Part shown: piece after piece, positions 9,680 to 45,604 of the stretch | Layout: each line of letters begins with the position of its first letter | Numbering within the stretch: position 1 is the stretch's first letter | Virus record (IMG/VR): IMGVR_UViG_3300017917_005385 | Length of the DNA stretch: 64,000 nucleotides | Direction: 5' to 3' (one strand) | Origin: an uncultured virus (IMG/VR IMGVR_UViG_3300017917_005385) | Lineage: Duplodnaviria > Heunggongvirae > Uroviricota > Caudoviricetes | Position numbers and translations under genes: made by a program | Notes under the pieces: model-generated | The model's input: the letters and a program-made list of their open reading frames with translations, nothing else | The model's database searches: none | Told to the model about the DNA's origin: nothing

Positions 9680-9778
9680 ATGAGAACATTTAATACACAT
9701 AAACATTTTAGTAAATCGAATAAGTGGTTTAGCAACCAGTTCGGTACTGAAAGTGTATTGCTCTCAAATAAGATGTAA
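9680..9778 (+). CDS. leader peptide 1 (His/Phe/Lys/Trp): MRTFNTHKHFSKSNKWFSNQFGTESVLLSNKM
   Basis: Short ORF between promoter and terminator; H/F/K/W codons match the downstream tRNAs. Confidence 0.8.
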   Translation: MRTFNTHKHFSKSNKWFSNQFGTESVLLSNKM

Positions 9779-9805
9779 CAAATCTATTTATACAAGACAA
9801 TATTC

Positions 9806-9846
9806 AAAAGTCCGAACTTAACAAAAAGTTCGGACTTTTTTGTTTT
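9806..9846 (+). terminator. attenuator terminator 1
   Basis: AAAAGTCCGAACTT/AAGTTCGGACTTTT stem plus U tract; leader AGTTCGG (9738-9744) complements the 5' arm. Confidence 0.88.
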
Positions 9847-9850
9847 ATAT

Positions 9851-9936
9851 GGTGTCGTTATTGTTAACGGAGAGTCGCAAGACGAGCATCTGGCTCTGTG
9901 AAAGCCAGGGTACGGGTTCGAATCCCGTACGACACC
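9851..9936 (+). tRNA. tRNA-His(GTG), G-1 encoded, hairpin insertion in D-loop
   Basis: Anticodon loop ctGTGaa; C73; TTCGAAT T-loop. Confidence 0.75.
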
Positions 9937-9943
9937 CAAACAA

Positions 9944-10016
9944 GGAACCTAAGCTAATCAGGTGAAAGCACTGGACTGAAAATCCAGGGAGCCCGGATCG
10001 TTACCGGGAGGTTCCA
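9944..10016 (+). tRNA. tRNA-Phe(GAA)
   Basis: ctgga-ctGAAaa-tccag; T-loop ATCGTTA. Confidence 0.85.
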
Positions 10017-10023
10017 CTAAAAT

Positions 10024-10097
10024 GGTGAATGTAGCTCAATCGGTAGAGCGTTGGTTTGTGGAGCCAAAGGCAGCGGGATCGTAACCCGTCATTCACC
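10024..10097 (+). tRNA. tRNA-His(GTG), G-1 encoded
   Basis: ttggt-ttGTGga-gccaa; C73. Confidence 0.88.
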
Positions 10098-10102
10098 CAA
10101 AA

Positions 10103-10174
10103 GGAGACTTAGCTGAGACGGTTTAGCGTCTGGTTGAAGCCCAGAAGAGGTCGGTTCGATTCCGGCAGTCTCCA
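10103..10174 (+). tRNA. tRNA-Phe(GAA)
   Basis: tctgg-ttGAAgc-ccaga. Confidence 0.85.
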
Positions 10175-10180
10175 CAAAAT

Positions 10181-10262
10181 ACAGGTACTCATTGGTGTGA
10201 CCAGCCGGTTCCAACCCGGTAATTCGTAAGAGTGGCTGTAGGTTCGAGTCCTACTACCTGTG
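10181..10262 (+). tRNA. atypical tRNA-Trp(CCA) with non-canonical D and variable regions
   Basis: acaggta/tacctgt acceptor; gccgg-ttCCAac-ccggt; canonical T arm. Confidence 0.6.
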
Positions 10263-10277
10263 CTAAAAGACAAACCT

Positions 10278-10348
10278 ACGGGTGTGGTGAAATGGTATCA
10301 TGACGGTCTCCAAAACCGTTGTTCTTGGTTCGAGTCCAGGCACCCGTG
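10278..10348 (+). tRNA. tRNA-Trp(CCA)
   Basis: acggt-ctCCAaa-accgt; G73. Confidence 0.88.
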
Positions 10349-10436
10349 CAAAATGATTAAGATGATGAAAACTAAGTTGAAATATAAACGCTAGGCAACG
10401 ACCAAATGAATACGGGTCGTTGCCATTAAAAACAAT

Positions 10437-10509
10437 GATTCCGTAGCTCAATTGGTGGAGCTTCCGGCTTTTAACCGGAAGGATGTGGGTTCGAGTCCCA
10501 CCGGGATCA
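10437..10509 (+). tRNA. tRNA-Lys(TTT)
   Basis: tccgg-ctTTTaa-ccgga. Confidence 0.9.
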
Positions 10510-10518
10510 CTAAATATT

Positions 10519-10605
10519 GATTCTGTCGCTTAGTGGCTATAGCAACTGGCTTTTAACCAGTAGAGATAATGTTCTCAACCGTGGGTTCGAGTCCCACCAG
10601 GATCA
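10519..10605 (+). tRNA. tRNA-Lys(TTT), long variable arm
   Basis: actgg-ctTTTaa-ccagt; gaga/tctc variable stem. Confidence 0.8.
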
Positions 10606-10611
10606 CAAAAC

Positions 10612-10695
10612 ACTCCTGTCGCTCAGAGGCCGAGAGCAACTGGCTTTTAACCAGTAGACGAAAGTCCATCGTAGGTTCGAATCCTACCAGGGGTA
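10612..10695 (+). tRNA. tRNA-Lys(TTT), long variable arm
   Basis: actgg-ctTTTaa-ccagt; gac-gaaa-gtc variable stem. Confidence 0.8.
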
Positions 10696-10700
10696 CAAAT

Positions 10701-10785
10701 GACTCCGTTTCCGTAGAGGCCGAACGGTTCTGACTCTTAATCAGATGACGAAAGTCCACCGTGGGTTCGAATCCCACCGGGGTCA
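10701..10785 (+). tRNA. tRNA-Lys(CTT), long variable arm
   Basis: tctga-ctCTTaa-tcaga; gac-gaaa-gtc variable stem. Confidence 0.8.
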
Positions 10786-10877
10786 CAAATTGAAACTAAA
10801 AACTAAAAAGTAATTTTTTAGATAATTTTATAGTTTTTAGTTTTAATATATACATGAAATAAAATATATTTTTGTGT

Positions 10878-11420
10878 ATGAAAGAAGAAATAATTAAACT
10901 AATAAATGAGGGTTTTACATATGATGATATTACTAAAAAATTAGGTTGTTCTAAAAGTACAATATCTTATCATTGTAATAAATTAAATTTAAAAAGTAAA
11001 AGTAAAAATATAGATGTAAATAGTGAACTTGTAAATAAAATTAACGAATTGTATAAATGTGGAAATAGCTCTTATACAATATCAAAAATTTTAGGAATTT
11101 CAAAAAGTACAGCTCTTAAATATATTAGTAAAGAAAATATAAGGACTAAGAAAAAAACTAAAACTAAAAAGGATAAGTCCGAATACATAATGAGATGGAA
11201 GAAAAATCTTAAAAAGAGTTTAGTTGAATACAAAGGATCTAAATGTGAAATTTGTGGATATGATAGATGTATAGAGGCTTTAGAATTTCATCACTCTGAT
11301 CCAAGTAAAAAGGATTTTTCAATATCTACAAAATTATTTGGAATTGAAAAAATGAAAAAAGAAGTAGATAAATGTTTACTGTTATGTTCTAATTGCCATA
11401 GAGAAAAACATTATTTATAA
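10878..11420 (+). CDS. HNH homing endonuclease with N-terminal HTH repeats
   Basis: CEICGY...LEFHH...LLCSNCHREKH; two HTH-like segments; lies within the tRNA region. Confidence 0.85.
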   Translation: MKEEIIKLINEGFTYDDITKKLGCSKSTISYHCNKLNLKSKSKNIDVNSELVNKINELYKCGNSSYTISKILGISKSTALKYISKENIRTKKKTKTKKDKSEYIMRWKKNLKKSLVEYKGSKCEICGYDRCIEALEFHHSDPSKKDFSISTKLFGIEKMKKEVDKCLLLCSNCHREKHYL

Positions 11421-11428: not shown

Positions 11429-11558
11429 GGGGATGTAGCTCAGTGGTAGAGTTTAAAATATCTCTTTTGAGGTTTTACCTTGAAAAAGTGTTGATTAAAA
11501 GAGTTACTTCGTTTGAATTGAAATCAAAAGGTCGTTGGTTCGAATCCAACCATCCCCG
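11429..11558 (+). ncRNA. tRNA-like RNA with a long stem inserted between the D arm and anticodon arm
   Basis: ggggatg/catcccc acceptor, canonical D and T arms, insert pairing ctcttttga/ttaaaagag followed by TTACTTCG. Confidence 0.6.
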
Positions 11559-11639
11559 CTAAAAAAATATTTGTAAATCTCAGAAAAAAGATTTACTTTT
11601 GTAGAAACAAAGAATAAAAAATTAATATATAATAAAGTT

Positions 11640-11717
11640 ATGAAAACAATTATGCTTACATCGAAGTCGTCAAGTAGTCGCTCGTCAAAAACGAGTGAGG
11701 TTCGATCGTATTCATAA
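11640..11717 (+). CDS. leader peptide 2 (Ser/Arg-CGN): MKTIMLTSKSSSSRSSKTSEVRSYS
   Basis: 10 of 25 codons are Ser; Arg codons CGC and CGA; followed by a terminator and Arg-ACG plus four Ser tRNAs. Confidence 0.85.
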   Translation: MKTIMLTSKSSSSRSSKTSEVRSYS

Positions 11718-11742: not shown

Positions 11743-11780
11743 AAACCCTTCGAACCAAAAGTTTGAAGGGTTTTTTGTTT
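11743..11780 (+). terminator. attenuator terminator 2
   Basis: AAACCCTTCGAAC/GTTTGAAGGGTTT plus U tract; leader GGTTCGA (11699-11705) complements TCGAACC. Confidence 0.88.
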
Positions 11781-11785: not shown

Positions 11786-11858
11786 GGTTCCATCGTCCAA
11801 TTGGACAGGACACTCCGCTACGAACGGAGAAATGAGGGTTCGAATCCTTCTGGAACTA
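11786..11858 (+). tRNA. tRNA-Arg(ACG)
   Basis: ctccg-ctACGaa-cggag. Confidence 0.9.
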
Positions 11859-11863
11859 CAAAT

Positions 11864-11947
11864 GGAGAAGTAATTTGGCCGGCGCCAAACACAGTCTTGA
11901 AAACTGCTGGTACCTTCGGGTATGGGGATCGACACCTCACTTCTCCG
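11864..11947 (+). tRNA. tRNA-Ser(TGA)
   Basis: ctTGAaa loop; long variable arm; G73. Confidence 0.8.
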
Positions 11948-11952
11948 CAACC

Positions 11953-12035
11953 GGAAGGAGTCCGAATGGACGAGGACACCGCCTTGAAAGCGGCTGGGTC
12001 GAAAGGCTTTGGGGGTTCGATTCCCTCTTCTTCCG
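11953..12035 (+). tRNA. tRNA-Ser(TGA)
   Basis: ccgc-ctTGAaa-gcgg; long variable arm; G73. Confidence 0.85.
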
Positions 12036-12040
12036 CAACT

Positions 12041-12126
12041 GGAGAGTAAACTAGTCAGGGTACTAGCACCGCCTGCTAAGCGAGTGGCACGGTAAAACGT
12101 GTGAGTTTCGAATACTCTGCTCTCCG
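12041..12126 (+). tRNA. tRNA-Ser(GCT)
   Basis: cgc-ctGCTaa-gcg; long variable arm; G73. Confidence 0.8.
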
Positions 12127-12133
12127 CTAAATT

Positions 12134-12219
12134 GGAGAATAAACTGATGAGGTCATCAGCCACGCCTGGAAAGCGTCGGGTACGTTCAATCGTATGGGTT
12201 TCGAGTACTCTGTTCTCCG
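12134..12219 (+). tRNA. tRNA-Ser(GGA)
   Basis: acgc-ctGGAaa-gcgt; long variable arm; G73. Confidence 0.8.
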
Positions 12220-12237: not shown

Positions 12238-12546
12238 ATGGAAGCAATTTACACAAGATTCTCAAGAAGAGAGACATCGTTTGAAAACACATTAATTCTT
12301 TTACAAGAATTGTTAAATGAAAGATTGTTACCAGATTACAAAAGAATTTGGGTTCAAGCTTCTAATTCCGGTAGAACAAGATTCTGCTTTACTATATTTC
12401 CTAATACAGGACAATATACTATGAGATTCCTAGATGCTGGCTCTTTTAGACAATTCAGAACAGATGGTAATTTAGAGGAAGAAATAGACTTAATAGAGAG
12501 GTTTATAGATTCTTTAAGATCTAATACACTAAATGGTGTTATATAA
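12238..12546 (+). CDS. hypothetical protein
   Basis: ORF after the Ser array, ending at a terminator. Confidence 0.6.
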   Translation: MEAIYTRFSRRETSFENTLILLQELLNERLLPDYKRIWVQASNSGRTRFCFTIFPNTGQYTMRFLDAGSFRQFRTDGNLEEEIDLIERFIDSLRSNTLNGVI

Positions 12547-16780: not shown

Positions 16781-16844
16781 ATCATATATATTAATAAACT
16801 TAGTTGATAATAGTAATATAATAATAAAAAAAACAAAGTTATAA

Positions 16845-21284: not shown

Positions 21285-23218
21285 AAAAAACATACATAAC
21301 ACACGTCACTAGAGACTATTTAGATGTAGCTATAAATTTAGCAAAGTCTATTGAGTTGTTTTCTAAAATACCTTTAGTTGTTTACTGCATCGGATTAGAA
21401 GATTCTGATAAGGAAAAGTTCAATATATTTAAAAATGTGGAGTTAAGAAATATAGAACTAGATATAAAATCAAATGATGATGATTATGTTACTAATAGTT
21501 CTGGTAACTTCTACATAAATAGAAATAGTACTAGAATATATCAAATTTTATGTGCTAAGACAATAGCTATGGAAATGGCTTTAGAAGAAGGATTTGACGA
21601 GGTTTGCTATCTAGATTCTGATTGTTTAGCAACACCTTTTGTAGATGAACTTTTTGATTGGACTAATAATATATCTGACTTTCCAATTGCAACTGAAGGT
21701 ATACATGAGTATATGATTATAATTGAGAATGGAATTCAAAAAGGAAATCCATTCATTAATTGGCCCATAGCAGACAATACATATAGCTTAGAATGGCCCT
21801 TAATGAATTTTATGCAAATGAAGCCAGAAGAAAGAGGTAGATACAGGACTACAGGTATAATGTTAATGAATCAAAATTGTTTACCTTTTATTAGAACTTG
21901 GAGAGAACTTTGCTTTTTATTACCAAAATTGGTTGATACTAGACATTATGCTCCGTACCATGAAGAGACTATATATAATGTACTATCATGGAAGAAAGAA
22001 AATAAAGGTTTTCCTCTTTGTTATATAAATTTAGGAGAAGGATTAGAAACAGTTAAACATTTCTACTCAGATGAATCAGTAGAAGGTAATTTAAGGTGGT
22101 CGGATACAGATACATCTCAAAATTTTTATAAAATTCCTGACGATAAAAAATATGTAAAAGTTTTACACGGTGAAAAAAGAACATCAGAGGTTGAAAGTAT
22201 TTTAGACTTCTTAAATAATAATAAAACAAAAAAAAATCCTAAAATTTTAATTCAAATTGACACTTTTGCAGATACACAAGATAAAATAGAAATAACAAAA
22301 CTTTGTATTGAGTCTTTAAAGGATTTTGAATATCCTATTCTTTTAACATCACATATAGATGTGCCAGATGAAATTAAAGATTTATGTGATTATAGTTATA
22401 TTGATAATAATAATGTTCTACTACCACCAACAACTAATAAATCATTTCTTAGATTCTATTCAGATTTTTTATCATCAGAGATTATATTAAATAACTCAGA
22501 TCCACATGCTCCGGCTTGTCTATCTAGTATCATAAATGGTGCTAGATTTGCAATAAATAATAATTTTGATTTCTTTATTAGATTTGAGTATGATGTTTTT
22601 ATAAAAGAAGAATACAAAAACTATGTAAAAGACTTAATAAAATCATCATCAAAGATGGATGGATTGGTTTTTTATAATAACAATTGGTTAGATGGTAAAA
22701 TAATAATGATTAAACCAGAATTATACCTTAAAAAGTTTGATGTTGATATTAATAGTTCAGATGATTATTATAATTTACTATCTAAAAATGGTGTACTTGA
22801 TGATAATAGAAGACATTTACAAAATACACAATATAAAATATTAAATGATTCTGGATTACTAAATAATGTAAATAAAATACCTACTAGAGATCTAGAAGAT
22901 TTAATTGATAATAGATTATCTATAAAAGAGTCTGGTGTATTTAGACCGGTCTACATAGAAGGTGATGAATCTAGTTTTGCTAATATATGCCACGGTTGGA
23001 TAGATGGTGATGTTAAGGTTGATATATATTTAGATAATGTTTTAATATACAATTATATTCAAAAGTATATTGCTAATTCTATAACATATAGAATATTTCA
23101 ATTTGAAAATAAAAATTATAAAATAATATCAACAGATTTAAAAACAAATAAAGTTGAGATTTTTGAATTTTCAAACATTCAAGAATTAAAAAATTTAGGA
23201 AAATTAATATTAAATTAA
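21281..23218 (+). CDS. putative GT-A glycosyltransferase, multi-domain
   Basis: CYLDSD (DxD), TGIML, HEETIYN; position in glycosylation cluster. Confidence 0.6.
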   Translation: MKKTYITHVTRDYLDVAINLAKSIELFSKIPLVVYCIGLEDSDKEKFNIFKNVELRNIELDIKSNDDDYVTNSSGNFYINRNSTRIYQILCAKTIAMEMALEEGFDEVCYLDSDCLATPFVDELFDWTNNISDFPIATEGIHEYMIIIENGIQKGNPFINWPIADNTYSLEWPLMNFMQMKPEERGRYRTTGIMLMNQNCLPFIRTWRELCFLLPKLVDTRHYAPYHEETIYNVLSWKKENKGFPLCYINLGEGLETVKHFYSDESVEGNLRWSDTDTSQNFYKIPDDKKYVKVLHGEKRTSEVESILDFLNNNKTKKNPKILIQIDTFADTQDKIEITKLCIESLKDFEYPILLTSHIDVPDEIKDLCDYSYIDNNNVLLPPTTNKSFLRFYSDFLSSEIILNNSDPHAPACLSSIINGARFAINNNFDFFIRFEYDVFIKEEYKNYVKDLIKSSSKMDGLVFYNNNWLDGKIIMIKPELYLKKFDVDINSSDDYYNLLSKNGVLDDNRRHLQNTQYKILNDSGLLNNVNKIPTRDLEDLIDNRLSIKESGVFRPVYIEGDESSFANICHGWIDGDVKVDIYLDNVLIYNYIQKYIANSITYRIFQFENKNYKIISTDLKTNKVEIFEFSNIQELKNLGKLILN

Positions 23219-24315
23219 TGAGTGACAATTTTTGTATAATAGTTTTTTCACATGCTGATAGTGAAGAAAAAGAAGAAATTCTTTATAATTCCTTATCATC
23301 AATAAAGCGCCTTAACATATCAATAATTCTAGCATCACATATTCCTGTGAGCGAAAGAAATCAAAACCTATGTGATTACTATGTTAAAGATAGTAACAAC
23401 CTTATATTAAGTGAGTCGGATATTATAAATAATCCGGTTAAAACATCAAAAGATATTTATAACACAACTGATTATTTTGGTGGATTAAAATTTGAGACAT
23501 CTGTTTTTAAAAAAACATATCAAGCTGGTGTTTTTAATCTTTATATAAGTGCTTTTAGATTTGCAAATAATATAGGTTTTAAAAATGCGATTTTATGGGA
23601 GTTTGATTATATACTTGGTGATAAATCAGTTTTTTTTATAAATGATTCTATTAACAGAATTTTATCCGAAGGAGTAGAATGTTTATACTTTAATAGTATT
23701 ATTAACATATTTAATAATGATATTATTCAAAAGTCTATAGATTGTTGTTATGCAATTCCTGCATTTTTTAATTTAGAGAAGTTTAACTCTATTTGTCCTA
23801 TCAATTTTATAAAAAGTGGAAAAGAGTATAATGAAATAAGTCGACTGATGATAATGGAACAATGGATAAAATCATATATTGTAGATAGATGTGAGAGAAA
23901 AATAGAATATCCATATGATCATTATAACAATTTATTACCGGATACTAAACTAGGACAAGTACACAGTCAAAGAGATAACTACCTTCTATCTGGTTTGAGA
24001 AGTGGTTTATATTTTAATGACGATAGAACATCTTTATGTTTACTTTTTGCAAATATGTCACTAAATCTACTTAGTTCAACTTTTCAGATATATCATGATG
24101 GTAATTTAATATTTGATATAAAAAGAGATTTATATCCAAAAAGTTGGTTTTATGACTTTTTAAATAGTGTAATTGTTGACTTATGTAAGTCAAAAAATGG
24201 TTGTCTTATTAAAGAAACTGTTGAAGATTTAAATACTAAAAAAGTTGATATTTTTGAGTATGTAATAAATGAAGAAAATATAGATTTTGTTTGTAAATTA
24301 AAAAAATTCTCTTAA
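23218..24315 (+). CDS. hypothetical protein related to the C-terminal domain of the previous gene
   Basis: Shared ILxSHI.V......LCDY...D.NN and xEyD motifs. Confidence 0.6.
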   Translation: MSDNFCIIVFSHADSEEKEEILYNSLSSIKRLNISIILASHIPVSERNQNLCDYYVKDSNNLILSESDIINNPVKTSKDIYNTTDYFGGLKFETSVFKKTYQAGVFNLYISAFRFANNIGFKNAILWEFDYILGDKSVFFINDSINRILSEGVECLYFNSIINIFNNDIIQKSIDCCYAIPAFFNLEKFNSICPINFIKSGKEYNEISRLMIMEQWIKSYIVDRCERKIEYPYDHYNNLLPDTKLGQVHSQRDNYLLSGLRSGLYFNDDRTSLCLLFANMSLNLLSSTFQIYHDGNLIFDIKRDLYPKSWFYDFLNSVIVDLCKSKNGCLIKETVEDLNTKKVDIFEYVINEENIDFVCKLKKFS

Positions 24316-24378
24316 ATTTGTATAATAATTGAAAAAGGGACTAAACTTTTTTAATATATACACATACAATAAAAACAT

Positions 24379-24450
24379 TGCGGGGTAGAGCAGAGGTAGC
24401 TCGCAAGGCTCATAACCTTGAGGTCGCAGGTTCGATTCCTGCCCCCGCTA
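24379..24450 (+). tRNA. tRNA-Met(CAT), initiator-like
   Basis: caagg-ctCATaa-ccttg; 1:72 mismatch; fMet-like D arm. Confidence 0.8.
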
Positions 24451-24673: not shown

Positions 24674-24690
24674 AAAGTTCTTTGAAATTT

Positions 24691-33069: not shown

Positions 33070-33263
33070 AATATTTTAGAAAGTATTTGGTGAATTAAAA
33101 AACACACCGTATATTTGTAAAACAATTGAGAGAGGCAACGATTTAGATACAAATTTCAATTTTTTTTACAAATTTTAGAAAAAAATTAGGCAAACTTAAA
33201 ACTTTTATCTATATTTGTATAAAATAAGTCAAAAGGAACAAAAACTTTTTAATATATACAACA

Positions 33264-33374
33264 ATGAAAACAATGAATTTAAATATGAATCTTAATCTAA
33301 CAGTGGTGAATACGTTATGTATTAGACCAGTGGAGGGTTTTGCCATATCTAAAAATTTGTTTTCAGTCAACTAA
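33264..33374 (+). CDS. leader peptide 5: MKTMNLNMNLNLTVVNTLCIRPVEGFAISKNLFSVN
   Basis: Codons 3-21 use only T, M, N, L, V, C, I and R(AGA), the isotypes of the downstream array. Confidence 0.85.
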   Translation: MKTMNLNMNLNLTVVNTLCIRPVEGFAISKNLFSVN

Positions 33375-33402: not shown

Positions 33403-33434
33403 AAACCCTCAGACAAAAATCTGAGGGTTTTTTT
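33403..33434 (+). terminator. attenuator terminator 5
   Basis: AAACCCTCAGA/TCTGAGGGTTT plus U tract; leader GAGGGTTT (33333-33340) complements AAACCCTC. Confidence 0.9.
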
Positions 33435-33502
33435 ATGCCTGTCCTCCTGAACATTTGGTGTTGGTTCGGGAGGACATGAAAAAGGAAAACACCATACCAC
33501 AT

Positions 33503-33574
33503 TCCTCGGTAGCTCAGTGGTAGAGCAAACGGCTGTTAACCGTTAGGTCGCTGGTTCGAGCCCAGCCCGGGGAG
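33503..33574 (+). tRNA. tRNA-Asn(GTT)
   Basis: aacgg-ctGTTaa-ccgtt; G73. Confidence 0.92.
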
Positions 33575-33582
33575 CAAAACAT

Positions 33583-33667
33583 TGGTAGGTACCCGAGCGG
33601 TATTCAGGGACTAGTCTGATACACTAGGTGAGAAATCACGACATGGGTTCAAATCCCATCCTACCAA
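33583..33667 (+). tRNA. tRNA-Ile(GAT), long variable arm
   Basis: ctagt-ctGATac-actag; gtga/tcac variable stem. Confidence 0.78.
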
Positions 33668-33673
33668 CAACAT

Positions 33674-33745
33674 TCACTGGTAGCTCAGAGGCAGAGCAGG
33701 CGCCTGTTAAGCGTCAGGTCGGGATATCGTAATTCCCCCAGTGAG
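33674..33745 (+). tRNA. tRNA-Asn(GTT)
   Basis: ggcgc-ctGTTaa-gcgtc; T-loop ATCGTAA. Confidence 0.82.
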
Positions 33746-33751
33746 CAAAAC

Positions 33752-33830
33752 GCCTCAGTAGCCGAGGTCGCCTTCTAAGCGACTAATCGTAACGGAACTG
33801 AAAATGTAGGTTCGAATCCTACCTGGGGTA
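33752..33830 (+). tRNA. D-arm-less tRNA-like RNA with TCT (Arg) anticodon
   Basis: gcctcag/ctggggt; gtcgc-ctTCTaa-gcgac; canonical T arm. Confidence 0.6.
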
Positions 33831-33836
33831 CAAAAT

Positions 33837-33909
33837 GGTCTCCTCGTCCAACTGGATAGGACATCGGTCTTCTAAACCGAGAATATGGGTTCGAATCCCG
33901 TGGAGACTA
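33837..33909 (+). tRNA. tRNA-Arg(TCT)
   Basis: tcggt-ctTCTaa-accga. Confidence 0.9.
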
Positions 33910-33917
33910 CAAAAAAT

Positions 33918-34000
33918 GCCGAAGTGGTGGAATGGTAGACACGCTAGCCTTAGGAGCTAGTACCCGAAAGGGTGTGTGGGTTCGAGTCCCACCTTCGGTA
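33918..34000 (+). tRNA. tRNA-Leu(TAG)
   Basis: ctagc-ctTAGga-gctag; variable arm. Confidence 0.92.
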
Positions 34001-34006
34001 CAAAAT

Positions 34007-34094
34007 TGGCAGGTAGCCTAGTGGTTCAGGCACCAGACTGTTAATCTGAGAGAAGAAATTCTCAACGTGGGTTCGAATCCCACCCTGTCAGCCA
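34007..34094 (+). tRNA. tRNA-Asn(GTT), long variable arm, CCA encoded
   Basis: caga-ctGTTaa-tctg; gagaa-gaaa-ttctc. Confidence 0.78.
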
Positions 34095-34097
34095 AAT

Positions 34098-34170
34098 AGT
34101 CCTGTAGCTCAATCGGGGGAGCGCCACTGTTACATAGTGGAGGGAGTCGGATCGTAACCGACCGGGACTA
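34098..34170 (+). tRNA. tRNA-Val(TAC)
   Basis: ccact-gtTACat-agtgg; T-loop ATCGTAA. Confidence 0.8.
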
Positions 34171-34176
34171 CTAAAA

Positions 34177-34274
34177 TGCTTTATGCACAATCTTACGATC
34201 TCTCAGTTAAAAGCTGTCGTAGGTTTAAGTGATAAAACAATATGTTTATCAGTTGTGAAAAACATAAAGCACCA
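34177..34274 (+). ncRNA. candidate three-way-junction RNA within tRNA array 5
   Basis: tgctttatg/cataaagca, cacaa/ttgtg, cttacga/tcgtagg, tgataaa/tttatca; ends in CCA. Confidence 0.5.
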
Positions 34275-34275
34275 T

Positions 34276-34349
34276 TGGAACATAGCTCAATTGGTTAGAG
34301 CATTCGCCTGATACGCGAAAGGTTATGAGTTCGAGTCTCATTGTTCCAA
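34276..34349 (+). tRNA. tRNA-Ile(GAT)
   Basis: ttcgc-ctGATac-gcgaa. Confidence 0.9.
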
Positions 34350-34357
34350 CAACAAAT

Positions 34358-34440
34358 GGTACTGTGGCCGAGTGGTGTCGAAAGACGAGAGGCACAGATC
34401 TGCAAAATCTGTCACACTGGTTCGAATCCAGTCAGTACCT
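34358..34440 (+). tRNA. tRNA-Cys(GCA), hairpin in D-loop
   Basis: cagat-ctGCAaa-atctg; U73; gtc-gaaa-gac insert. Confidence 0.85.
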
Positions 34441-34446
34441 CAACAT

Positions 34447-34518
34447 TGTTCTGTAGCTTAATGGGAAAGCGCTACCTTGACATGGTAGAGAGAGTCGGAT
34501 CGTTACCGACCAGAACAA
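34447..34518 (+). tRNA. tRNA-Val(GAC)
   Basis: ctacc-ttGACat-ggtag; T-loop ATCGTTA. Confidence 0.85.
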
Positions 34519-34524
34519 CTACAA

Positions 34525-34600
34525 GCCTCTATAGCTTTAACGGTAGAGCACCGCACTTGTAATGCGGGGGTTGGCGGTTCGAATCCGTCTGGAGGCTCCA
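34525..34600 (+). tRNA. tRNA-Thr(TGT), CCA encoded
   Basis: ccgca-ctTGTaa-tgcgg. Confidence 0.9.
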
Positions 34601-34601
34601 A

Positions 34602-34721
34602 ATAATGGATGGTGATTAAGAGTGTTACTTCGTGAAATTGGTATACACATTTGTCCTAAAAACAAACTTTTGAGGGTTCAAGTCCCTCAGTAAAATCACT
34701 CTTTAGACTTTCCTCCATTAT
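34602..34721 (+). ncRNA. tRNA-like domain on a long closing stem (Y-RNA/YrlA-like architecture)
   Basis: ataatgga/tccattat and aagagtg/cactctt stems enclose D, anticodon (TAA) and T arms; GTTACTTCG shared with the 11429 element. Confidence 0.55.
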
Positions 34722-34723
34722 AT

Positions 34724-34807
34724 GCCGATGTGGCTCAGTGGCGACAGCACTGGTTTTGTAAACCAGAGACGAATAGTCCAACGGGGGTTCGAGTCCCTCC
34801 ATCGGCT
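34724..34807 (+). tRNA. tRNA-Thr(TGT), long variable arm
   Basis: ctggt-ttTGTaa-accag; gac-gaata-gtc. Confidence 0.8.
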
Positions 34808-34822
34808 CAAAATAAATCACCT

Positions 34823-34908
34823 GCCTGGGTGGTGGAATTGGTAGACACGCTGGACTTAAAATTCAGTGGGCAGTAATGCCCGTGCGGGTTCGAGTCCCGC
34901 CCCAGGTA
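34823..34908 (+). tRNA. tRNA-Leu(TAA)
   Basis: ctgga-ctTAAaa-ttcag; variable arm. Confidence 0.92.
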
Positions 34909-34939
34909 CTGAAGTGAAACAAAAGTTCACTACTAAATT

Positions 34940-35010
34940 ATTGGGATAGTTTAACGGTAAATCGTGGGCCTGATATGCCCTTGTTCTTGGTTCGACTCCA
35001 GGTCTCAATA
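34940..35010 (+). tRNA. tRNA-Ile(GAT), divergent
   Basis: gggc-ctGATat-gccc. Confidence 0.65.
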
Positions 35011-35016
35011 CTAAAC

Positions 35017-35088
35017 TTCGATATTGCCTAATGGTAGGGCGCAGGGGGACATGTTCCTGAGGACTTGGTTCGATTCCGGGTATCGATA
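35017..35088 (+). tRNA. degenerate tRNA, anticodon unassignable
   Basis: D and T arms present; irregular anticodon loop. Confidence 0.45.
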
Positions 35089-35096
35089 CAAAAAAA

Positions 35097-35169
35097 GCAG
35101 TCATCGTATAATAGGTGATTACACGTCCTTGGTACGGACGAGACTCCGGTTCGAATCCGGATGATTGCT
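35097..35169 (+). tRNA. tRNA-Thr(GGT)
   Basis: cgtcc-ttGGTac-ggacg. Confidence 0.87.
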
Positions 35170-35180
35170 CAACAACATCT

Positions 35181-35261
35181 GCCCAGATGGTGGAATGGTA
35201 GACACGCTCGTTTAAGAGGCGAGTACCGAAAGGTGTGAGAGTTCGAGTCTCTCTCTGGGTA
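35181..35261 (+). tRNA. tRNA-Leu(AAG)
   Basis: ctcgt-ttAAGag-gcgag; Leu-type D and variable arms. Confidence 0.8.
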
Positions 35262-35271
35262 CAAAATATAT

Positions 35272-35341
35272 GCCGTGGCTTAGTGGAAAAGAGCCTACTC
35301 TCATAAGGTGGGTTAAGTGAGTTCGAACCTCATACACGGTA
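35272..35341 (+). tRNA. tRNA-Met(CAT), divergent
   Basis: ctCATaa loop; weak stems; shortened acceptor-D junction. Confidence 0.55.
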
Positions 35342-35346
35342 CAAAT

Positions 35347-35427
35347 GTCAGAATGGTGGAATGGTATACACACTGGTCTCAAAAGCCAGCGCCTAACGGT
35401 ATGAGAGTTCAATTCTCTCTTCTGATA
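35347..35427 (+). tRNA. tRNA-Leu(CAA)
   Basis: ctggt-ctCAAaa-gccag; variable arm. Confidence 0.87.
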
Positions 35428-35449
35428 CTCGATAAAAAAACCAATAGAA

Positions 35450-36472: not shown

Positions 36473-37936
36473 ATGAAAAATATAGTAACAAGAATTGCAC
36501 CTTCTCCAACTGGACCGTTTGCACATATTGGTAATGTGAGAACTCTATTGTATAACTACTTTCTTGCTAAAAAGAATGGTGGTAAATTCTATGTTCGTTT
36601 GGAAGATACCGATCGTGATAGATATAATGCCTCGTTTTTAACATACTTTAAAGATATGTGTGATTGGCTTGGTATAGTACCTGATGGTTCTTATTGGAAC
36701 CCTGATCCATCTATTGGCTCATTCACTCAATCAACAAGAGATTATTCAGATAAGGTTAAATTCCTTTTAGATAAAGGTTTGGCTTACTATGCCTTTGATA
36801 CTAAGGATGATTTAGACGCACTAAAGGCTAAAGGTCTAAAGTATGACTCAACAACTCGCATGTCTATGAATAACTCATTGACTAATCCATCCACTGATAT
36901 TATGTTACAAAGTGGTGTTCCTTATGTAATTAGATTTGCTGTTCCAGCTGACTTAGATGTAACTTTCACTGATGCTATTTTAGGTGATATCACAATCAAC
37001 ACAAATACTTTAGATGATAAAGTTTTAATTAAGTCAAATGGAATTGGCTCATATCATCTTTGTAATGTTTGTGACGATCATGATATGGGTGTTACTCACG
37101 TTCTTAGAGGTAACGAGTGGGTAAACTCTACTCCTTTCCACGTTATTCTTTATAAGGCTTTTGGTTGGGATGTTCCTACATTTGCTCACTTACCTTTAAT
37201 TATGAATCCAGATGGTAAAGGTAAGTTGTCTAAGAGAACTGCTATGAAGTATGGTATTCCTATCGCACCACTTGGTTACACAGATGATAATGGTGTTTAT
37301 ACACCAGGTTGGAAAGACTTAGGATATGATCCTAAAGCATTTATGAACTATCTTGCTTTAATTGGTTGGAATCCAGGAGCTGAAGTAGAAATTATGTCTA
37401 TGGATGATATGATTAATTTATTCTCTTTAGATAGAGTTCACAAGTCTGGTGCTCGTTTCGATATGGATAAAGCTAAGTGGATGAACTCTCAATATCTTAA
37501 ATTAACAGATAACAAAGACTTGATGCCTTATGTTGATGTAGTTGACGATAGATATTCTGATGATAAATTAGACATGATTGTCTCTTTGGCTAAAGATAGA
37601 TCTGACTTTAAAACTGACTTGAATAAAATTGTTAAATTATTCTTTGATGTCCCTTCTATCGATGATAGAAGTAAATTAGATGATAACTATACAAAAGTTA
37701 TGTCAGACTTTATCAACAAAATTGATACAATTAACTTTGATGATACAAACTCAATCAAAGACACTATCTCATCAATCTGTAATGATTTAGGTGTTAAGAT
37801 GGGTAAAGTAATGCCTGGTTTAAGAATGGCTTTGGTATCCGGGATTGCTGGACCAGACTTAATGACAACAATGTCAATTCTAGGTAAAGACCAAACAAAA
37901 TTGAGAATTAATAACTCAATTACGGTAATGGCTTAA
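36473..37936 (+). CDS. gltX: glutamate--tRNA ligase
   Basis: RIAPSPTG, HIGN, RLEDTD, THVLRG.EW, KLSKR, anticodon-binding domain. Confidence 0.95.
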   Translation: MKNIVTRIAPSPTGPFAHIGNVRTLLYNYFLAKKNGGKFYVRLEDTDRDRYNASFLTYFKDMCDWLGIVPDGSYWNPDPSIGSFTQSTRDYSDKVKFLLDKGLAYYAFDTKDDLDALKAKGLKYDSTTRMSMNNSLTNPSTDIMLQSGVPYVIRFAVPADLDVTFTDAILGDITINTNTLDDKVLIKSNGIGSYHLCNVCDDHDMGVTHVLRGNEWVNSTPFHVILYKAFGWDVPTFAHLPLIMNPDGKGKLSKRTAMKYGIPIAPLGYTDDNGVYTPGWKDLGYDPKAFMNYLALIGWNPGAEVEIMSMDDMINLFSLDRVHKSGARFDMDKAKWMNSQYLKLTDNKDLMPYVDVVDDRYSDDKLDMIVSLAKDRSDFKTDLNKIVKLFFDVPSIDDRSKLDDNYTKVMSDFINKIDTINFDDTNSIKDTISSICNDLGVKMGKVMPGLRMALVSGIAGPDLMTTMSILGKDQTKLRINNSITVMA

Positions 37937-40250: not shown

Positions 40251-40366
40251 GACTTATATATTAAAAAAGTAATCACACAATATTATTTAAAATAATTCTT
40301 AATAAAATTTGGCAATTGTTAATAAGTATTGTATATTTGTAATAATAAGTCTAAATATAAATAAAG

Positions 40367-43372: not shown

Positions 43373-43750
43373 ATGAAATATTTAAAATCAATAAATGAAG
43401 AATTTGACAGAGTTGTTGGATTCAGATACTCAGATCCAAAAGAAGCATATAAGATTACGGCTTTATGTATGGGTGAAGATATAACTAATGATAAAGTAGA
43501 GAAGGCTTTAGGTAAAGTTAGTAATCTAAAATTCAAACCTGAAACTATTAATGTTAAAAATAGTGAAGAGGAAACATTAATTGAAACACCTAATGGTGTT
43601 GTTAGTATTGATGCTTTTGTTAACTTTGATATAGTAGTATATACAGATAGAGAGATAAGATCTATCATTGAAGAGTTAGGTGAAATACTATCTTCAGCAT
43701 TTGATATAGAAATATTAAACTTTAGAGTTAAAAAAGATTTTGGTATTTAA
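43373..43750 (+). CDS. hypothetical protein (MKYLKSINEEF N-terminus)
   Basis: AATATATA upstream. Confidence 0.65.
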   Translation: MKYLKSINEEFDRVVGFRYSDPKEAYKITALCMGEDITNDKVEKALGKVSNLKFKPETINVKNSEEETLIETPNGVVSIDAFVNFDIVVYTDREIRSIIEELGEILSSAFDIEILNFRVKKDFGI

Positions 43751-43885
43751 AATAATATTATTATCTTTGTACTCACAGAAGAAAAATAAATAAAAAATAA
43801 AAAAATATTTGACAAATTAAAACTTTGTTGTATATTTGTATAAAATAAGAACAAAAGGAACAAAAACTTTTTAATATATACTGAA

Positions 43886-43984
43886 ATGAAAAACTTAAAC
43901 TTAAATATTGTTAACCCGCAACCACAAGTTGTAATCGATCAGGATCCTGGTTCGAAAGGGGCTAACTATGTGGTTTTAAGTTAA
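43886..43984 (+). CDS. leader peptide 6 (Pro/Gln/Asp): MKNLNLNIVNPQPQVVIDQDPGSKGANYVVLS
   Basis: PQPQ...DQDP; followed by a terminator, Pro/Asp tRNAs and then the Gln tRNAs. Confidence 0.82.
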   Translation: MKNLNLNIVNPQPQVVIDQDPGSKGANYVVLS

Positions 43985-44005: not shown

Positions 44006-44045
44006 AAACCCAGTTAGTCGAAAGATTAACTGGGTTTTTTGTTTT
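44006..44045 (+). terminator. attenuator terminator 6
   Basis: AAACCCAGTTAGTC-gaaa-GATTAACTGGGTTT plus U tract; leader GGCTAACT (43960-43967) pairs with AGTTAGTC. Confidence 0.9.
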
Positions 44046-44052
44046 AACATAA

Positions 44053-44126
44053 CGGGAAGTGACTAAGGTTTTAAGCACGGGTGTTCTGGAGACATCAGTT
44101 AGTCGGTTCGATTCCGACCTTCCCGA
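44053..44126 (+). tRNA. tRNA-Pro(TGG), divergent
   Basis: cgggaag/cttcccg; ggtgt-tcTGGag-acatc. Confidence 0.7.
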
Positions 44127-44133
44127 CAAAAAT

Positions 44134-44205
44134 GGTCTAGTGGTGAAGTGGCTATCATATCTGCCTGTCACGCAGAAGTAGAGGGATCGAAACCCTTCTA
44201 GACCG
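44134..44205 (+). tRNA. tRNA-Asp(GTC)
   Basis: tctgc-ctGTCac-gcaga; G73. Confidence 0.88.
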
Positions 44206-44267
44206 CACGAAGTATAATTGGATAGAAACGTACTCTTTAGGGAATAGAGTAAAATAATTCTCAAAAT

Positions 44268-44340
44268 GGTCTCGTGGTTGAATGGTTACAATACCACCCT
44301 GTCACGGTGCGAGGTGCGGGTTCGAGTCCCGTCGAGACCG
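44268..44340 (+). tRNA. tRNA-Asp(GTC)
   Basis: cacc-ctGTCac-ggtg; G73. Confidence 0.88.
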
Positions 44341-44345
44341 CAAAA

Positions 44346-44435
44346 GGATTTATAGCTTAACTAGACGAAAATCGTCGCTGGTAGAGTAGCCCCGGTGCGT
44401 GGGGGAAGGTCTTGGTTCGAGTCCAGGTAGGTCCG
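44346..44435 (+). tRNA. atypical tRNA (G73, D-loop hairpin, irregular anticodon loop)
   Basis: ggattta/taggtcc; gacg-aaaat-cgtc insert; canonical T arm. Confidence 0.5.
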
Positions 44436-44440
44436 CAAAA

Positions 44441-44514
44441 GGTTCGTTAGTAGAGTTGGTTACAATATCGCACTGTCACTGCGAAGGTCACGGGTTCGAA
44501 TCCCGTACGAACCG
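44441..44514 (+). tRNA. tRNA-Asp(GTC)
   Basis: tcgca-ctGTCac-tgcga; G73. Confidence 0.9.
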
Positions 44515-44519
44515 CAAAA

Positions 44520-44591
44520 GGTCTTGTCGTCCAATGGTAGGATAGCCCGTTGTCTGCGGGATGGTTGCGGGTTCGAATCCCGTCAGGACCG
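44520..44591 (+). tRNA. tRNA-Asp(GTC)
   Basis: cccg-ttGTCtg-cggg; G73. Confidence 0.82.
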
Positions 44592-44600
44592 CTAAAATTA

Positions 44601-44677
44601 CGAGATGTTGGGGAGCCCGGTCACCCCGCCTGCTTTGGGAGCAGGAGAACTCGCAGGTTCGAATCCTGCCATCTCGA
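44601..44677 (+). tRNA. tRNA-Pro(TGG)
   Basis: cctgc-ttTGGga-gcagg. Confidence 0.9.
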
Positions 44678-44731
44678 CTACTCAAAGATAGGGAGTCCGA
44701 CATTTTTAATATATAAAATAAAAAATGTCGG

Positions 44732-45313
44732 ATGAACTTGAAAGAGGAAATTAAAAATTGTTATAGTGTATCAGATTTTTGTAGATTATTAAATTTATCA
44801 CAAGGTGGTGGTGGATTTTCTAAAGCGAAAAAAATAATACAAGATAACAATCTGGATATATCACATTTTGATAAGGGTTACTTGAAAAGACAAAAGAATC
44901 CTAAAATTGAAAAGGTTTGTCCAGTTTGTGATAAGAAATTTGAAACGGTTACTTGGAGCAATAGAAAAGAAAAAGTTACTTGTTCTAAGTCGTGTGCTAA
45001 CTCTTACTTTAGAAGTGGTGTTGATAACCCAAACTGGAAAGAAGAATCATACAGAACTACTTGTTTTTATTATCACAAAAAAGAATGTATAATATGTGGT
45101 GAGGAAAAAATTGTAGAGGTTCATCATATGGATGAAAATCATATGAATAATAAACCCGAAAATTTAGTACCTTTGTGTCCTACTCATCATCAATATTGGC
45201 ACTCAAGATATAAAGAGGAAATAGAAGATAAAATATATAACTACATAAAAGAATTTAAAATGAGAACAACAACACAATACCAGCAACAACAACAAATTAA
45301 TCCAACGGATTGA
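44732..45313 (+). CDS. HNH homing endonuclease whose C-terminus reads in frame through leader peptide 7
   Basis: CPVC, CSKSC, CIICG...VHH.D.N..NN..ENL..LCP.HH. Confidence 0.85.
   Translation: MNLKEEIKNCYSVSDFCRLLNLSQGGGGFSKAKKIIQDNNLDISHFDKGYLKRQKNPKIEKVCPVCDKKFETVTWSNRKEKVTCSKSCANSYFRSGVDNPNWKEESYRTTCFYYHKKECIICGEEKIVEVHHMDENHMNNKPENLVPLCPTHHQYWHSRYKEEIEDKIYNYIKEFKMRTTTQYQQQQQINPTD
45260..45313 (+). CDS. leader peptide 7 (Gln): MRTTTQYQQQQQINPTD
   Basis: Own ATG after AATATATA (45232-45239); 6 Gln codons; terminator, three tRNA-Gln and glnS downstream. Confidence 0.85.
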   Translation: MRTTTQYQQQQQINPTD

Positions 45314-45338
45314 TAACGGTATTGTATTGTCAAAATTC

Positions 45339-45375
45339 AAACCCGAATCAATTCAAATTGGTTCGGGTTTTTTTT
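45339..45375 (+). terminator. attenuator terminator 7
   Basis: AAACCCGAATCAAT/ATTGGTTCGGGTTT plus U tract; ATTGAT..CGG around the leader stop complements the 5' arm. Confidence 0.88.
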
Positions 45376-45377
45376 AT

Positions 45378-45448
45378 TGTCTTATAGTGTAACGGCAGCA
45401 CAAGAGATTTTGACTCTCTTAGTCTAGGTTCGAATCCTAGTGAGACAA
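45378..45448 (+). tRNA. tRNA-Gln(TTG)
   Basis: agaga-ttTTGac-tctct. Confidence 0.9.
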
Positions 45449-45454
45449 CAACAT

Positions 45455-45526
45455 TGCTCTATAGTATATGGGTTATCATATCTGTCTTTGAAACAGATGA
45501 ACTTGGTTCGAGTCCAAGTGGAGCAA
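45455..45526 (+). tRNA. tRNA-Gln(TTG)
   Basis: tctgt-ctTTGaa-acaga. Confidence 0.85.
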
Positions 45527-45533
45527 CAAACAA

Positions 45534-45604
45534 TGCCTCGTAGTGTAATGGCAACACAGAAGATTTTGACTCTTCTATTCTAGGTTCGAGTCCTAGCGAG
45601 GCAA
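45534..45604 (+). tRNA. tRNA-Gln(TTG)
   Basis: gaaga-ttTTGac-tcttc. Confidence 0.9.

Follow-up and report, generated by a model that had tools for sequence, protein, structure and literature searches.

Putative leader-peptide attenuators ahead of seven tRNA arrays in an uncultured huge phage

Introduction

How does a phage that carries several tens of tRNA genes decide when to transcribe them? In the textbook view, tRNA genes are controlled at the level of the promoter, by growth rate and by the stringent response. The question is raised by a stretch of 64,000 nucleotides (nt) of IMGVR_UViG_3300017917_005385, an uncultured Caudoviricetes virus (one strand; this whole stretch is called the window below). 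The window is AT-rich (GC 0.24-0.41), and in its region 9,680-45,604 seven tRNA arrays each stand behind a short leader open reading frame (ORF) and an intrinsic terminator. The original prediction was that these leaders (L1 to L7) are attenuators, each matched to its own tRNAs and together covering all 20 amino acids. As far as sequence evidence reaches, our analysis makes it likely that the units carry out multivalent, ribosome-mediated attenuation of the trp/his/ilv type on phage tRNA genes (and, in unit 7, on the GlnRS gene), that is, a negative feedback on decoding capacity. If true, a codon-by-codon sensor of decoding speed would be answered by the very tRNAs that are missing, which would bring a kind of regulation new to the translation apparatus and would explain how phages with 45-67 tRNA genes avoid the constant expression of all of them.

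Seven tRNA arrays lie behind leader ORFs and terminators

ARAGORN called 47 tRNA genes between 9944 and 45605, every one of them on the + strand, as are all leaders, terminators and arrays described below. Rfam covariance-model alignments together with relaxed ARAGORN runs added 12 more genes of atypical shape with a readable anticodon, namely His GUG (9852), four Ser (11864-12218), Glu (24864), Ile UAU (25837), Gly UCC (26125), Ala (26215), Arg UCU (33752), Cys GCA (34358) and Pro (44053); four tRNAs with D-loop or variable-arm inserts, which ARAGORN misread at the relaxed threshold, were replaced by their covariance-model readings. The resulting 59 tRNA genes with readable anticodon make up the seven arrays (58 genes) and one single tRNA-Met, and their anticodons confirm the predicted coverage of all 20 isotypes. 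The predicted layout was also borne out: in seven of seven arrays the order is promoter, ATG-started ORF of 17-36 codons, intrinsic terminator and tRNAs.

In unit 1, L1 (9680-9778, stop codon included here as in all leader coordinates; MRTFNTHKHFSKSNKWFSNQFGTESVLLSNKM) holds control codons for His, Lys, Phe and Trp and an anti-terminator, a segment complementary to the 5' arm of the terminator, at 9737-9749; terminator 1 (9809-9841; an 11-bp stem, then a T tract) is followed by an array (9852-10786) of His, Phe, His, Phe, Trp, Trp and four Lys tRNAs. L2 (11640-11717; MKTIMLTSKSSSSRSSKTSEVRSYS), with Ser (UCN, AGY) and Arg (CGC, CGA) control codons and an anti-terminator at 11698-11706, stands before terminator 2 (11745-11776) and an array (11786-12218) of Arg-ACG, two Ser-UGA, Ser-GCU and Ser-GGA. 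The control codons of L3 (24537-24614; MNTVMNIAYYYEGERSSNVRLMSMS; anti-terminator 24590-24599) are those for Tyr and Glu, and behind terminator 3 (24638-24668) array 3 (24784-25629) runs Glu, Glu (24864), Tyr, Tyr, Glu, an internal promoter-like site (25222-25252), Glu and Tyr. L4 (25695-25775; MKNLTNISTAIIEGGAGANVTGWFML; anti-terminator 25752-25764) carries codons for Ile (AUA), Gly and Ala; terminator 4 (25801-25832) and an array (25837-26792) of Ile-UAU, Gly-UCC, a CAU tRNA (Met or Ile2), Gly-UCC, Ala-UGC, small ORFs, Gly-GCC and Ala-UGC follow.

L5 (33264-33374; MKTMNLNMNLNLTVVNTLCIRPVEGFAISKNLFSVN; anti-terminator 33329-33339) combines control codons for Asn, Leu, Met, Thr, Val, Cys, Ile (AUU) and Arg (AGA), and the array (33503-35428) behind terminator 5 (33405-33434) holds 20 tRNAs for Asn, Ile, Arg-UCU, Leu, Val, Cys, Thr and Met. 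L6 (43886-43984; MKNLNLNIVNPQPQVVIDQDPGSKGANYVVLS) has Pro, Gln and Asp control codons and an anti-terminator (43959-43975) that is weak in the window copy; terminator 6 (44008-44040) precedes an array (44053-44678) of Pro, two Asp, a tRNA-like element without assigned anticodon, two Asp and Pro. Finally, L7 (45260-45313; MRTTTQYQQQQQINPTD) has Gln control codons only and an anti-terminator (45306-45320) that overlaps the stop codon, and terminator 7 (45341-45375) leads into three Gln-UUG tRNAs (45378-45605). The seven terminator hairpins have predicted energies of -14 to -19 kcal/mol, each with a T tract behind it. Only 2-100 nt separate the end of the T tract from the first tRNA, which it abuts in unit 7, so that the tRNAs would be reachable only by read-through of the terminator.

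Leader codons match the tRNAs behind them

We scored the fraction of each leader's codons that is decoded by each array's anticodons, for all leaders against all arrays. The results showed that, of the 5,040 permutations possible in the window, no other scores as high as the true leader-array pairing (sum 2.65 vs a mean of 1.03), which is also the best at the amino-acid level. The claim that control codons match their own array thus withstood the permutation test, save for the Gln codons of L6, whose tRNAs stand behind L7. The match also extends to codon families, as had been predicted for Arg and Ile. The conserved Arg positions of L2 are CGC or CGA in 11 of 11 copies, and its array holds Arg-ACG; a single stray AGA lies inside a 27-nt insertion. 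In the L5 cluster Arg is AGA in all six copies, with Arg-UCU in the array, while L4 keeps at least two AUA codons in five of five copies ahead of an Ile-UAU whose anticodon was confirmed by alignment.

The window's closest database relatives are LR745206.1 (634,780 bp) and LR756502.1 (642,428 bp), both uncultured huge phage genomes. All seven leaders were found again in these two genomes and in three IMG/VR contigs (five related records). The contigs were retrieved with leader-derived DNA patterns; one 19-mer pattern gave 14 matches, of which only the three loci with tRNA arrays (L010, L015 and L018) were taken as relatives and the 11 tRNA-free matches were dropped. Protein-anchored IMG/VR searches with ORFs 31672-33069 and 23218-24315 returned one weak locus without tRNAs and nothing, respectively. 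A degenerate leader-1 pattern led to 20 metagenome contigs, 18 of them with a complete leader and terminator and, in most of these 18, the expected tRNAs behind leader 1; the other two are cut by contig ends. In total, 58 distinct leader copies in seven families were collected.

LR756504.1 (636 kb) has hardly any DNA similarity to this region and carries the same device, with its tRNAs grouped differently into eight units. There, the leader MTTIIRNMNNNINRTRTT... heads Thr, Asn, Thr and Arg tRNAs; MKTIAMIIRMRIIRPKMLG heads Arg-UCU, Ile and Met; MKTVNTNIAIVEIAVIGGAEEGV... heads Glu, Ala, Ile-UAU, Val, Gly and Glu; MKNLTNIFWHFHFK... heads His and Phe; MKTKKQQYKQYQPQYK... heads Tyr, Tyr and Gln; MRTILIIKKKKRD... 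heads three Lys; and MKAMILSLCLSLSLSLQK... heads Leu, Leu, Ser, Cys, Ser, Ser, Leu and Leu. An Asp unit lies upstream of the Tyr/Gln unit. For these groups (N/T/R; I/M/R; E/A/I/V/G; H/F; D; Y/Q; K; L/S/C), no other arrangement among the 40,320 permutations scores as well as the true pairing. Cognate codons are clustered as well: with the long ORFs of the window (11,617 codons) as the codon-usage reference, the best run of 10 codons for cognate content had a P of <=0.021 in six of the seven window leaders and at most 0.023 in 13 of 15 leaders (seven from the window and eight from LR756504.1). Prevotella phage Lak-B1 has at least two such units (two tRNA regions were examined), both with strong anti-terminators: MKTLNMTYCMHPVCGMIHMFPCGGGR... 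stands before His, Pro, Arg, Arg, Gly, Gly, Cys and Met, and MKQFNNIYKNNVDIYADSFNWYEQDCYAD... before Trp, Asn, Asn, Val, Ala, Tyr, Asp, Gln and further tRNAs. In all, the design was seen in Lak-B1, in the genomes of 634, 636 and 642 kb, and in contigs from IMG/VR (three) and from lake or marine metagenomes (18), and it appears to be widespread. Judged by these comparisons, the leader/array feature is real and conserved, and chance is a very unlikely explanation of it.

Could the leaders nevertheless be translation-dependent attenuators that act as a general timer of translation capacity or infection stage, opening all tRNA operons when translation slows? L5, with codons for eight amino acids, would come near to a general sensor, L6 and L7 stand in series, and promoter motifs are common to every unit. 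Where an array is codon-specific, however, so is its leader, and sharply (Gln only, Lys only, or Ser with Arg-CGN); moreover, an assignment that is the best possible both in the window and in LR756504.1, following the re-sorted groups, would be needless for a general sensor. Because the leaders track array content so closely, we regard a general timer as improbable and favour attenuation that is specific to the codon set of each array.

The leader ORFs bear signs of translation

Codon-specific attenuation presupposes that the leaders are read by ribosomes. Among relatives, the start, frame and stop of the leader ORFs are kept across the 58 distinct copies of the seven families, and indels come in multiples of 3, in agreement with the conservation that had been predicted for relatives. 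In the control region, the composition is kept while the exact sequence drifts; for example, L3 reads AYYYEGE, ASYESYYEEG and IGYTGYEGAYSE in three lineages. Synonymous changes of control codons also occur among homologues, for Pro (CCG/CCA/CCU), Lys (AAA/AAG), Gln (CAA/CAG), Tyr (UAU/UAC) and Glu (GAG/GAA). Across the 15 leaders of the window and LR756504.1, 141 cognate triplets lie in frame, compared with 45 and 37 in the other two frames. The concatenated leaders gave a dN/dS of 0.34-0.49, which lends weak support to their translation.

These data bear on a T-box-like, translation-independent switch, in which leader triplets would pair with the anticodons of uncharged tRNAs and thereby stabilise the anti-terminator. 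Such a switch would fit the clustering of anticodon-complementary triplets beside an anti-terminator/terminator pair, but it would account neither for the conserved ATG, frame and stop with indels in multiples of 3 nor for the concentration of cognate triplets in frame 0. Moreover, a scan of 9000-46500 with Rfam 15 at gathering scores gave 49 matches, all of them tRNA, with no T-box or other RNA family among them, and we know of no T-box precedent for up to eight specificities in one leader. We thus consider a T-box-like switch very improbable, and the ribosome-mediated attenuation proposed above remains the preferred reading.

A putative anti-terminator inside the leader ORFs, with co-variation in the L1 family

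A trp/his-type switch further requires a segment that competes for the terminator. We number the control-codon region as segment 1, the anti-terminator as segment 2 and the two arms of the terminator as segments 3 and 4. In the first 20 copies, the best partner of the terminator 5' arm was found inside the ORF, just 3' of the control codons. A terminator-complementary segment lies within the 3' part of the ORF in all 58 distinct copies, and 53 of these segments outscore 95% of their dinucleotide shuffles; in LR756504.1, the shuffle fraction is <=0.033 in seven of the eight units. The predicted complement to the terminator 5' arm was thus upheld in most copies, although those of L5 and L6 in the window are weak. 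In the L2 family, indels make the MAFFT alignment unreliable in the terminator, and per-sequence duplex searches were therefore used instead of pair counts.

The L1 family (16 sequences) supplies the co-variation that had been predicted for related phages. Its anti-terminator is 98% paired, with three pairs changed on both sides; none of 500 shuffles matched this, and slid controls reached <=53%. In LR756502.1, segments 2, 3 and 4 of L1 are changed together (GTTCGG to ATTCGA). The terminator of this family is paired in 94.6% of cells, and the 1:2 hairpin, formed by the control-codon region and segment 2, is 95.9% paired vs <=44% in slid controls, with changes on one side only. RNAalifold, applied to the same family, predicted the 1:2 hairpin and the terminator independently.

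In minimum-free-energy folds of single leaders, segment 2 pairs with the control-codon region in seven of seven window leaders; in folds of truncated transcripts, the 1:2 hairpin is not the winning structure in five of the seven. To model a stalled ribosome, its footprint was masked and the 3' arm of the terminator was left out, an equilibrium calculation that is a rough proxy for co-transcriptional folding. In these folds, the anti-terminator is allowed as long as the A-site codon lies between the start and a certain boundary. In six of the seven leaders, this boundary coincides with the final codon of the control cluster or is <=2 codons away from it on either side.

The least probable of the alternatives is that the terminators are constitutive or serve as insulators, the ORFs being incidental or encoding micropeptides with a function of their own and the tRNAs being made by leak-through or from promoters elsewhere. 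Ordinary genes in the window do end in terminators of this ACCC...GGGT style, and some tRNAs have internal promoter-like sites, but such a reading leaves unexplained why codon composition tracks array content in three divergent lineages and why a conserved, co-varying segment complementary to the terminator lies inside the ORF, and there is no room for a promoter between the terminator and the first tRNA in units 2 and 7.

A model for the control of phage tRNA genes by stalled ribosomes

In the mechanism we propose, transcription would begin at host-type and phage-motif promoters, and a ribosome would translate the short leader. As long as decoding of the control codons keeps its normal pace, the ribosome would cover segment 2, or segment 2 would re-pair with segment 1; with segment 2 sequestered, the terminator (3:4) would form and the tRNA genes would stay untranscribed. 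Slow decoding of the array's codons would instead stall the ribosome on segment 1, and segment 2 would then pair with the terminator 5' arm. The blocked terminator would let RNA polymerase read through into the array, whose tRNAs would relieve the stall. Each unit would in this way form a negative-feedback loop on the decoding capacity for one codon set; each leader would be multivalent, with one to eight amino acids sensed, and the seven together would report on all 20. That the leaders are translated and that stalling drives read-through we infer from the anatomy, codon matching, conservation and co-variation described above. Candidate causes of slow decoding in vivo are a mismatch in codon usage, shut-off of host tRNA synthesis, anticodon nucleases and amino-acid limitation. 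The original prediction went further, in that a loss of a tRNA would call up only the module that replaces it. This is too clean a picture, given the serial arrangement of L6 and L7, the internal promoters and the presence of up to eight amino acids in one leader.

Several observations weigh against the attenuation model. Unless one also counts the tRNAs of the unit that follows in the series, the clustering of cognate codons is weak in L6 (P=0.064, Pro/Asp only) and absent in unit U5 (P=0.58). Weak anti-terminators are found in the window's L5 (shuffle fraction 0.09) and L6 (0.17) and in unit U7 of LR756504.1 (0.17), and some non-cognate codons are conserved, among them Asn and Ile (AUA) as codons 6 and 7 in L3. 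The masked-ribosome folds do not discriminate stall positions in L2, and the fold without a ribosome leaves the terminator 5' arm paired upstream in five of the seven leaders, so that termination in the absence of translation is not cleanly predicted. Since the homologues are related, the shuffle counts overstate independence. Genes of the Bacteroidetes type lack Shine-Dalgarno sites, and the ribosome-binding sites of the leaders therefore cannot be scored. Lastly, an extra supply of charged tRNA is no cure for amino-acid starvation, so the benefit of the system would depend on the type of shortage.

A bolder version of the model would be a codon-resolved surveillance of the whole genetic code in the huge phages of this clade, in which seven or eight independent stall sensors each switch on a replacement set of tRNAs (in the case of Gln, with the synthetase as well), module by module, as a counter-defence against hosts that cleave or deplete certain tRNAs or as an answer to the phage's own shut-off of host tRNA, rather than as plain housekeeping feedback. 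We offer this version tentatively and think it rather doubtful. Whichever version applies, the units offer a testable handle on why phages carry tRNAs, be it compensation for codon usage or replacement after loss to host defence. They are also compact (~150 nt per unit) and modular, and nature has already re-programmed the design by re-sorting the groups and re-writing the leaders, which recommends it for experimental work and for use as a synthetic sensor of tRNA supply.

Units 6 and 7 in series, GlnRS and tRNAs outside the gates

The Gln codons of L6 find an explanation in the arrangement of units 6 and 7, because the Gln tRNAs sit behind both gates, L6 and then L7. In four relatives, L7 begins ~30 nt after the last tRNA of array 6 (Pro), and no -33/-7 site belonging to L7 itself is visible in these four. 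The claim of seven leader ORFs holds with one qualification. Whereas L7 is a free-standing ORF of 16-17 codons in the four relatives, in the window it forms the in-frame C-terminal end of an HNH-like ORF (44732-45313, + strand, 193 aa), which is missing at this place in the relatives and whose inserted portion (44732-45259) lies between array 6 and L7. Since the HNH-like ORF reads in frame into L7, its translation in this phage would also cross the Gln sensor. The ORF resembles homing endonucleases.

The GlnRS gene (45634-47238, + strand; Pfam) begins 28 nt downstream of the third and last tRNA-Gln. No terminator separates the two, and the gene thus probably belongs to unit 7. Five of five genomes show the same order, with 18-34 nt between the final tRNA-Gln and the GlnRS start. 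Going by gene order, it is therefore probable that tRNA-Gln and GlnRS are both under the control of the poly-Gln leader; GlnRS is the only synthetase found behind a leader here.

Not all tRNAs are gated: the arrays stand behind leaders, as originally described, but two tRNAs have promoter-like sites of their own and no leader. One is tRNA-Glu 25266, which follows the internal site of array 3 (25222-25252). The other is the single tRNA-Met (CAU; 24379-24451, + strand), with a promoter-like site at 24290-24320 and an upstream motif at 24344-24360 and with neither leader nor terminator; its counterpart is leaderless in all three relatives that hold it. By our own reading of a 1:72 mismatch, this tRNA-Met looks initiator-like. 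Stalling during elongation would be blind to an initiator tRNA, which fits the absence of a leader; the elongator Met tRNA is in array 5, and AUG codons occur within L5. The 476-kb close relative G001, the only genome in which tRNAs outside the window region were visible, has a few further tRNAs (Leu-UAA, Arg-UCU, Met and Cys) far from the arrays and with no leader-terminator unit ahead of them (L027 C1:384500-387500; L028 C1:132000-133500).

Relation to known regulatory systems

Attenuators of amino-acid biosynthetic operons, multivalent ones among them, include those of trp, his, leu, pheA, thr (Thr/Ile) and ilvGMEDA (Ile/Leu/Val). The general principle of leader-peptide attenuation is stated in the abstract of PMC1183508. 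The units described here share with these operons a short leader with clustered regulatory codons, a putative choice between terminator and anti-terminator, a predicted 1:2 hairpin over the regulatory codons, the proposed freeing of the anti-terminator by a stall on hungry codons and the possibility of several amino acids per leader. They differ in that tRNA genes rather than biosynthetic enzymes would be controlled, with a product that acts directly on the sensed step, in their phage setting, in the joint coverage of all 20 amino acids by seven units (eight in LR756504.1), in a match by codon family and anticodon, and in the serial placement of two units.

Synthetase genes are also subject to attenuation, as is E. 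coli pheST under the pheM leader. In bacilli, hisS paralogues are preceded by a His-codon leader (PMC2965389). Unit 7 resembles these cases in that GlnRS, a gene of the translation apparatus, follows a leader of its cognate (Gln) codons, and differs from them in that the tRNAs themselves would be the first and main products. With T-box riboswitches the units have in common that the status of tRNA would be sensed and that an anti-terminator/terminator switch lies 5' of translation-apparatus genes; T-boxes, however, bind one uncharged tRNA directly and without translation, whereas here the ORFs are conserved and no T-box match was obtained. According to the abstract of a preprint (bioRxiv 10.1101/834739), leaderless polycysteine short ORFs are Cys-responsive attenuators in mycobacteria. 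In these too, one amino acid is sensed by ribosome stalling on a short ORF that lies close to the 5' end of the mRNA or right at it, but they belong to bacterial protein-coding operons and have a single specificity. A motif that ends 4-5 nt before the ATG of several leaders suggests that 5' untranslated regions (UTRs) are similarly short or absent here.

No account of leader-peptide attenuation of tRNA genes was found in the full-text literature searched, a scope that leaves most subscription journals outside. A passage on a 'tRNA operon' in PMC3082878 was considered as a precedent and, as far as that passage goes, is unrelated. What appears to be new here is the choice of tRNA genes as the target, the phage setting, a set of units for 20 amino acids, matching at the level of the anticodon and serial gates, with a putative Gln attenuator placed behind a Pro/Asp/Gln one and also heading GlnRS, together with an initiator-like tRNA-Met that lacks a leader.

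Promoter-like sites and an upstream motif

The Bacteroidetes promoter consensus is TTTG-N18-21-TAnnTTTG (-33/-7). Using this generally known consensus, we found 20 occurrences in the window vs 3.25 expected. A second motif, AAACTTTTTAATATATA, occurs there 12 times at <=3 mismatches vs 4.8 expected, and it ends 4-5 nt 5' of the ATG of L1, L5 and L6 (9658-9674, 33242-33258 and 43864-43880) and of three long minus-strand ORFs (8076-8092, 16785-16801 and 40255-40271, all on the - strand). This placement suggests that mRNA 5' UTRs are very short or absent and that the leaders share a signal with genuinely translated genes; the motif may be a phage promoter for leaderless or near-leaderless mRNAs. 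A sigma-70 family gene (2621-3397) is present in the same window as this putative phage promoter motif.

Predicted promoter-like sites were found 5' of L1, L2, L3, L5 and L6, and the motif 5' of L1, L4, L5 and L6, all on the + strand. The promoter region of unit 1 (9532-9674) contains sites at 9532-9563 and 9602-9633 and then the motif, which ends 5 nt before the ATG. Unit 2 has a promoter-like site at 11570-11601 and unit 3 one at 24469-24500, while unit 4 has the upstream motif at 25659-25675. The region of unit 5 (33086-33258) joins a -33/-7 site (33086-33117) to the motif, and that of unit 6 (43739-43880) joins two -33/-7 sites to it.

Genomic setting and further features of the tRNA region

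Al-Shayeb et al. 2020 (PMC7162821) report the genomes of 634, 636 and 642 kb as complete, assign them to the 'Mahaphage' clade with Bacteroidetes as predicted hosts, and count as many as 67 tRNAs in one genome; the sections of that paper drawn on here make no mention of tRNA control in these genomes. In the window, the arrays are surrounded by a translation island, which by Pfam matches includes the sigma-70 family protein mentioned above, SmpB (5651-6085), a YqeY-like protein (8553-8981), a Thg1-like tRNA-His guanylyltransferase (27414-28235), a PP-loop, TilS-like ATPase (29517-30155) and GluRS (36473-37936), in addition to GlnRS. Although an SmpB gene is present, no transfer-messenger RNA (tmRNA) was called in the window. 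The presence of the TilS-like ATPase fits an Ile2 identity of the CAU tRNA in array 4.

Small protein-coding ORFs lie inside array 4 (26223-26468 and 26482-26595) and directly 3' of array 2 (12238-12546), where they would be co-regulated by L4 and L2, respectively. ORF 12238-12546, the only one of the three that was submitted to Pfam, gave no match. A helix-turn-helix-domain ORF (10872-11420), which is homing-endonuclease-like, is inserted in the tRNA region and is missing there in relatives.

Many of the tRNAs have unusual shapes. Long tRNAs of 80-90 nt with a variable arm of ~14-22 nt occur among the Lys, Ile, Arg, Asn, Thr and Glu isotypes, which are normally short-armed (10519-10786, 25837-25917, 33583-33668, 33752-33830, 34007-34094, 34724-34808 and 24864-24944). 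In Ile-UAU 25837, the D arm is missing from the covariance-model alignment. The D loops of tRNA-His (9852-9936), tRNA-Gly (26125-26207) and tRNA-Cys (34358-34440) contain inserts of 13-21 nt, which is why ARAGORN misses or misreads these three.

In or beside the arrays there are also tRNA-like elements with an acceptor-like stem and often a T arm, to which no anticodon could be assigned (24690-24778, 25342-25460, 34176-34275, 35017-35089, 44346-44436 and 11431-11560). Among them, 34176-34275 has an encoded CCA at its end, 35017-35089 has ACAU within an 8-nt loop, and 11431-11560 resembles a tRNA split by an insert of ~58 nt. Between terminator 5 and the first tRNA of array 5 stands a strong hairpin (33438-33480) with arms of ~8 nt and a loop that resembles a T loop, which may be a processing signal or a tRNA remnant.

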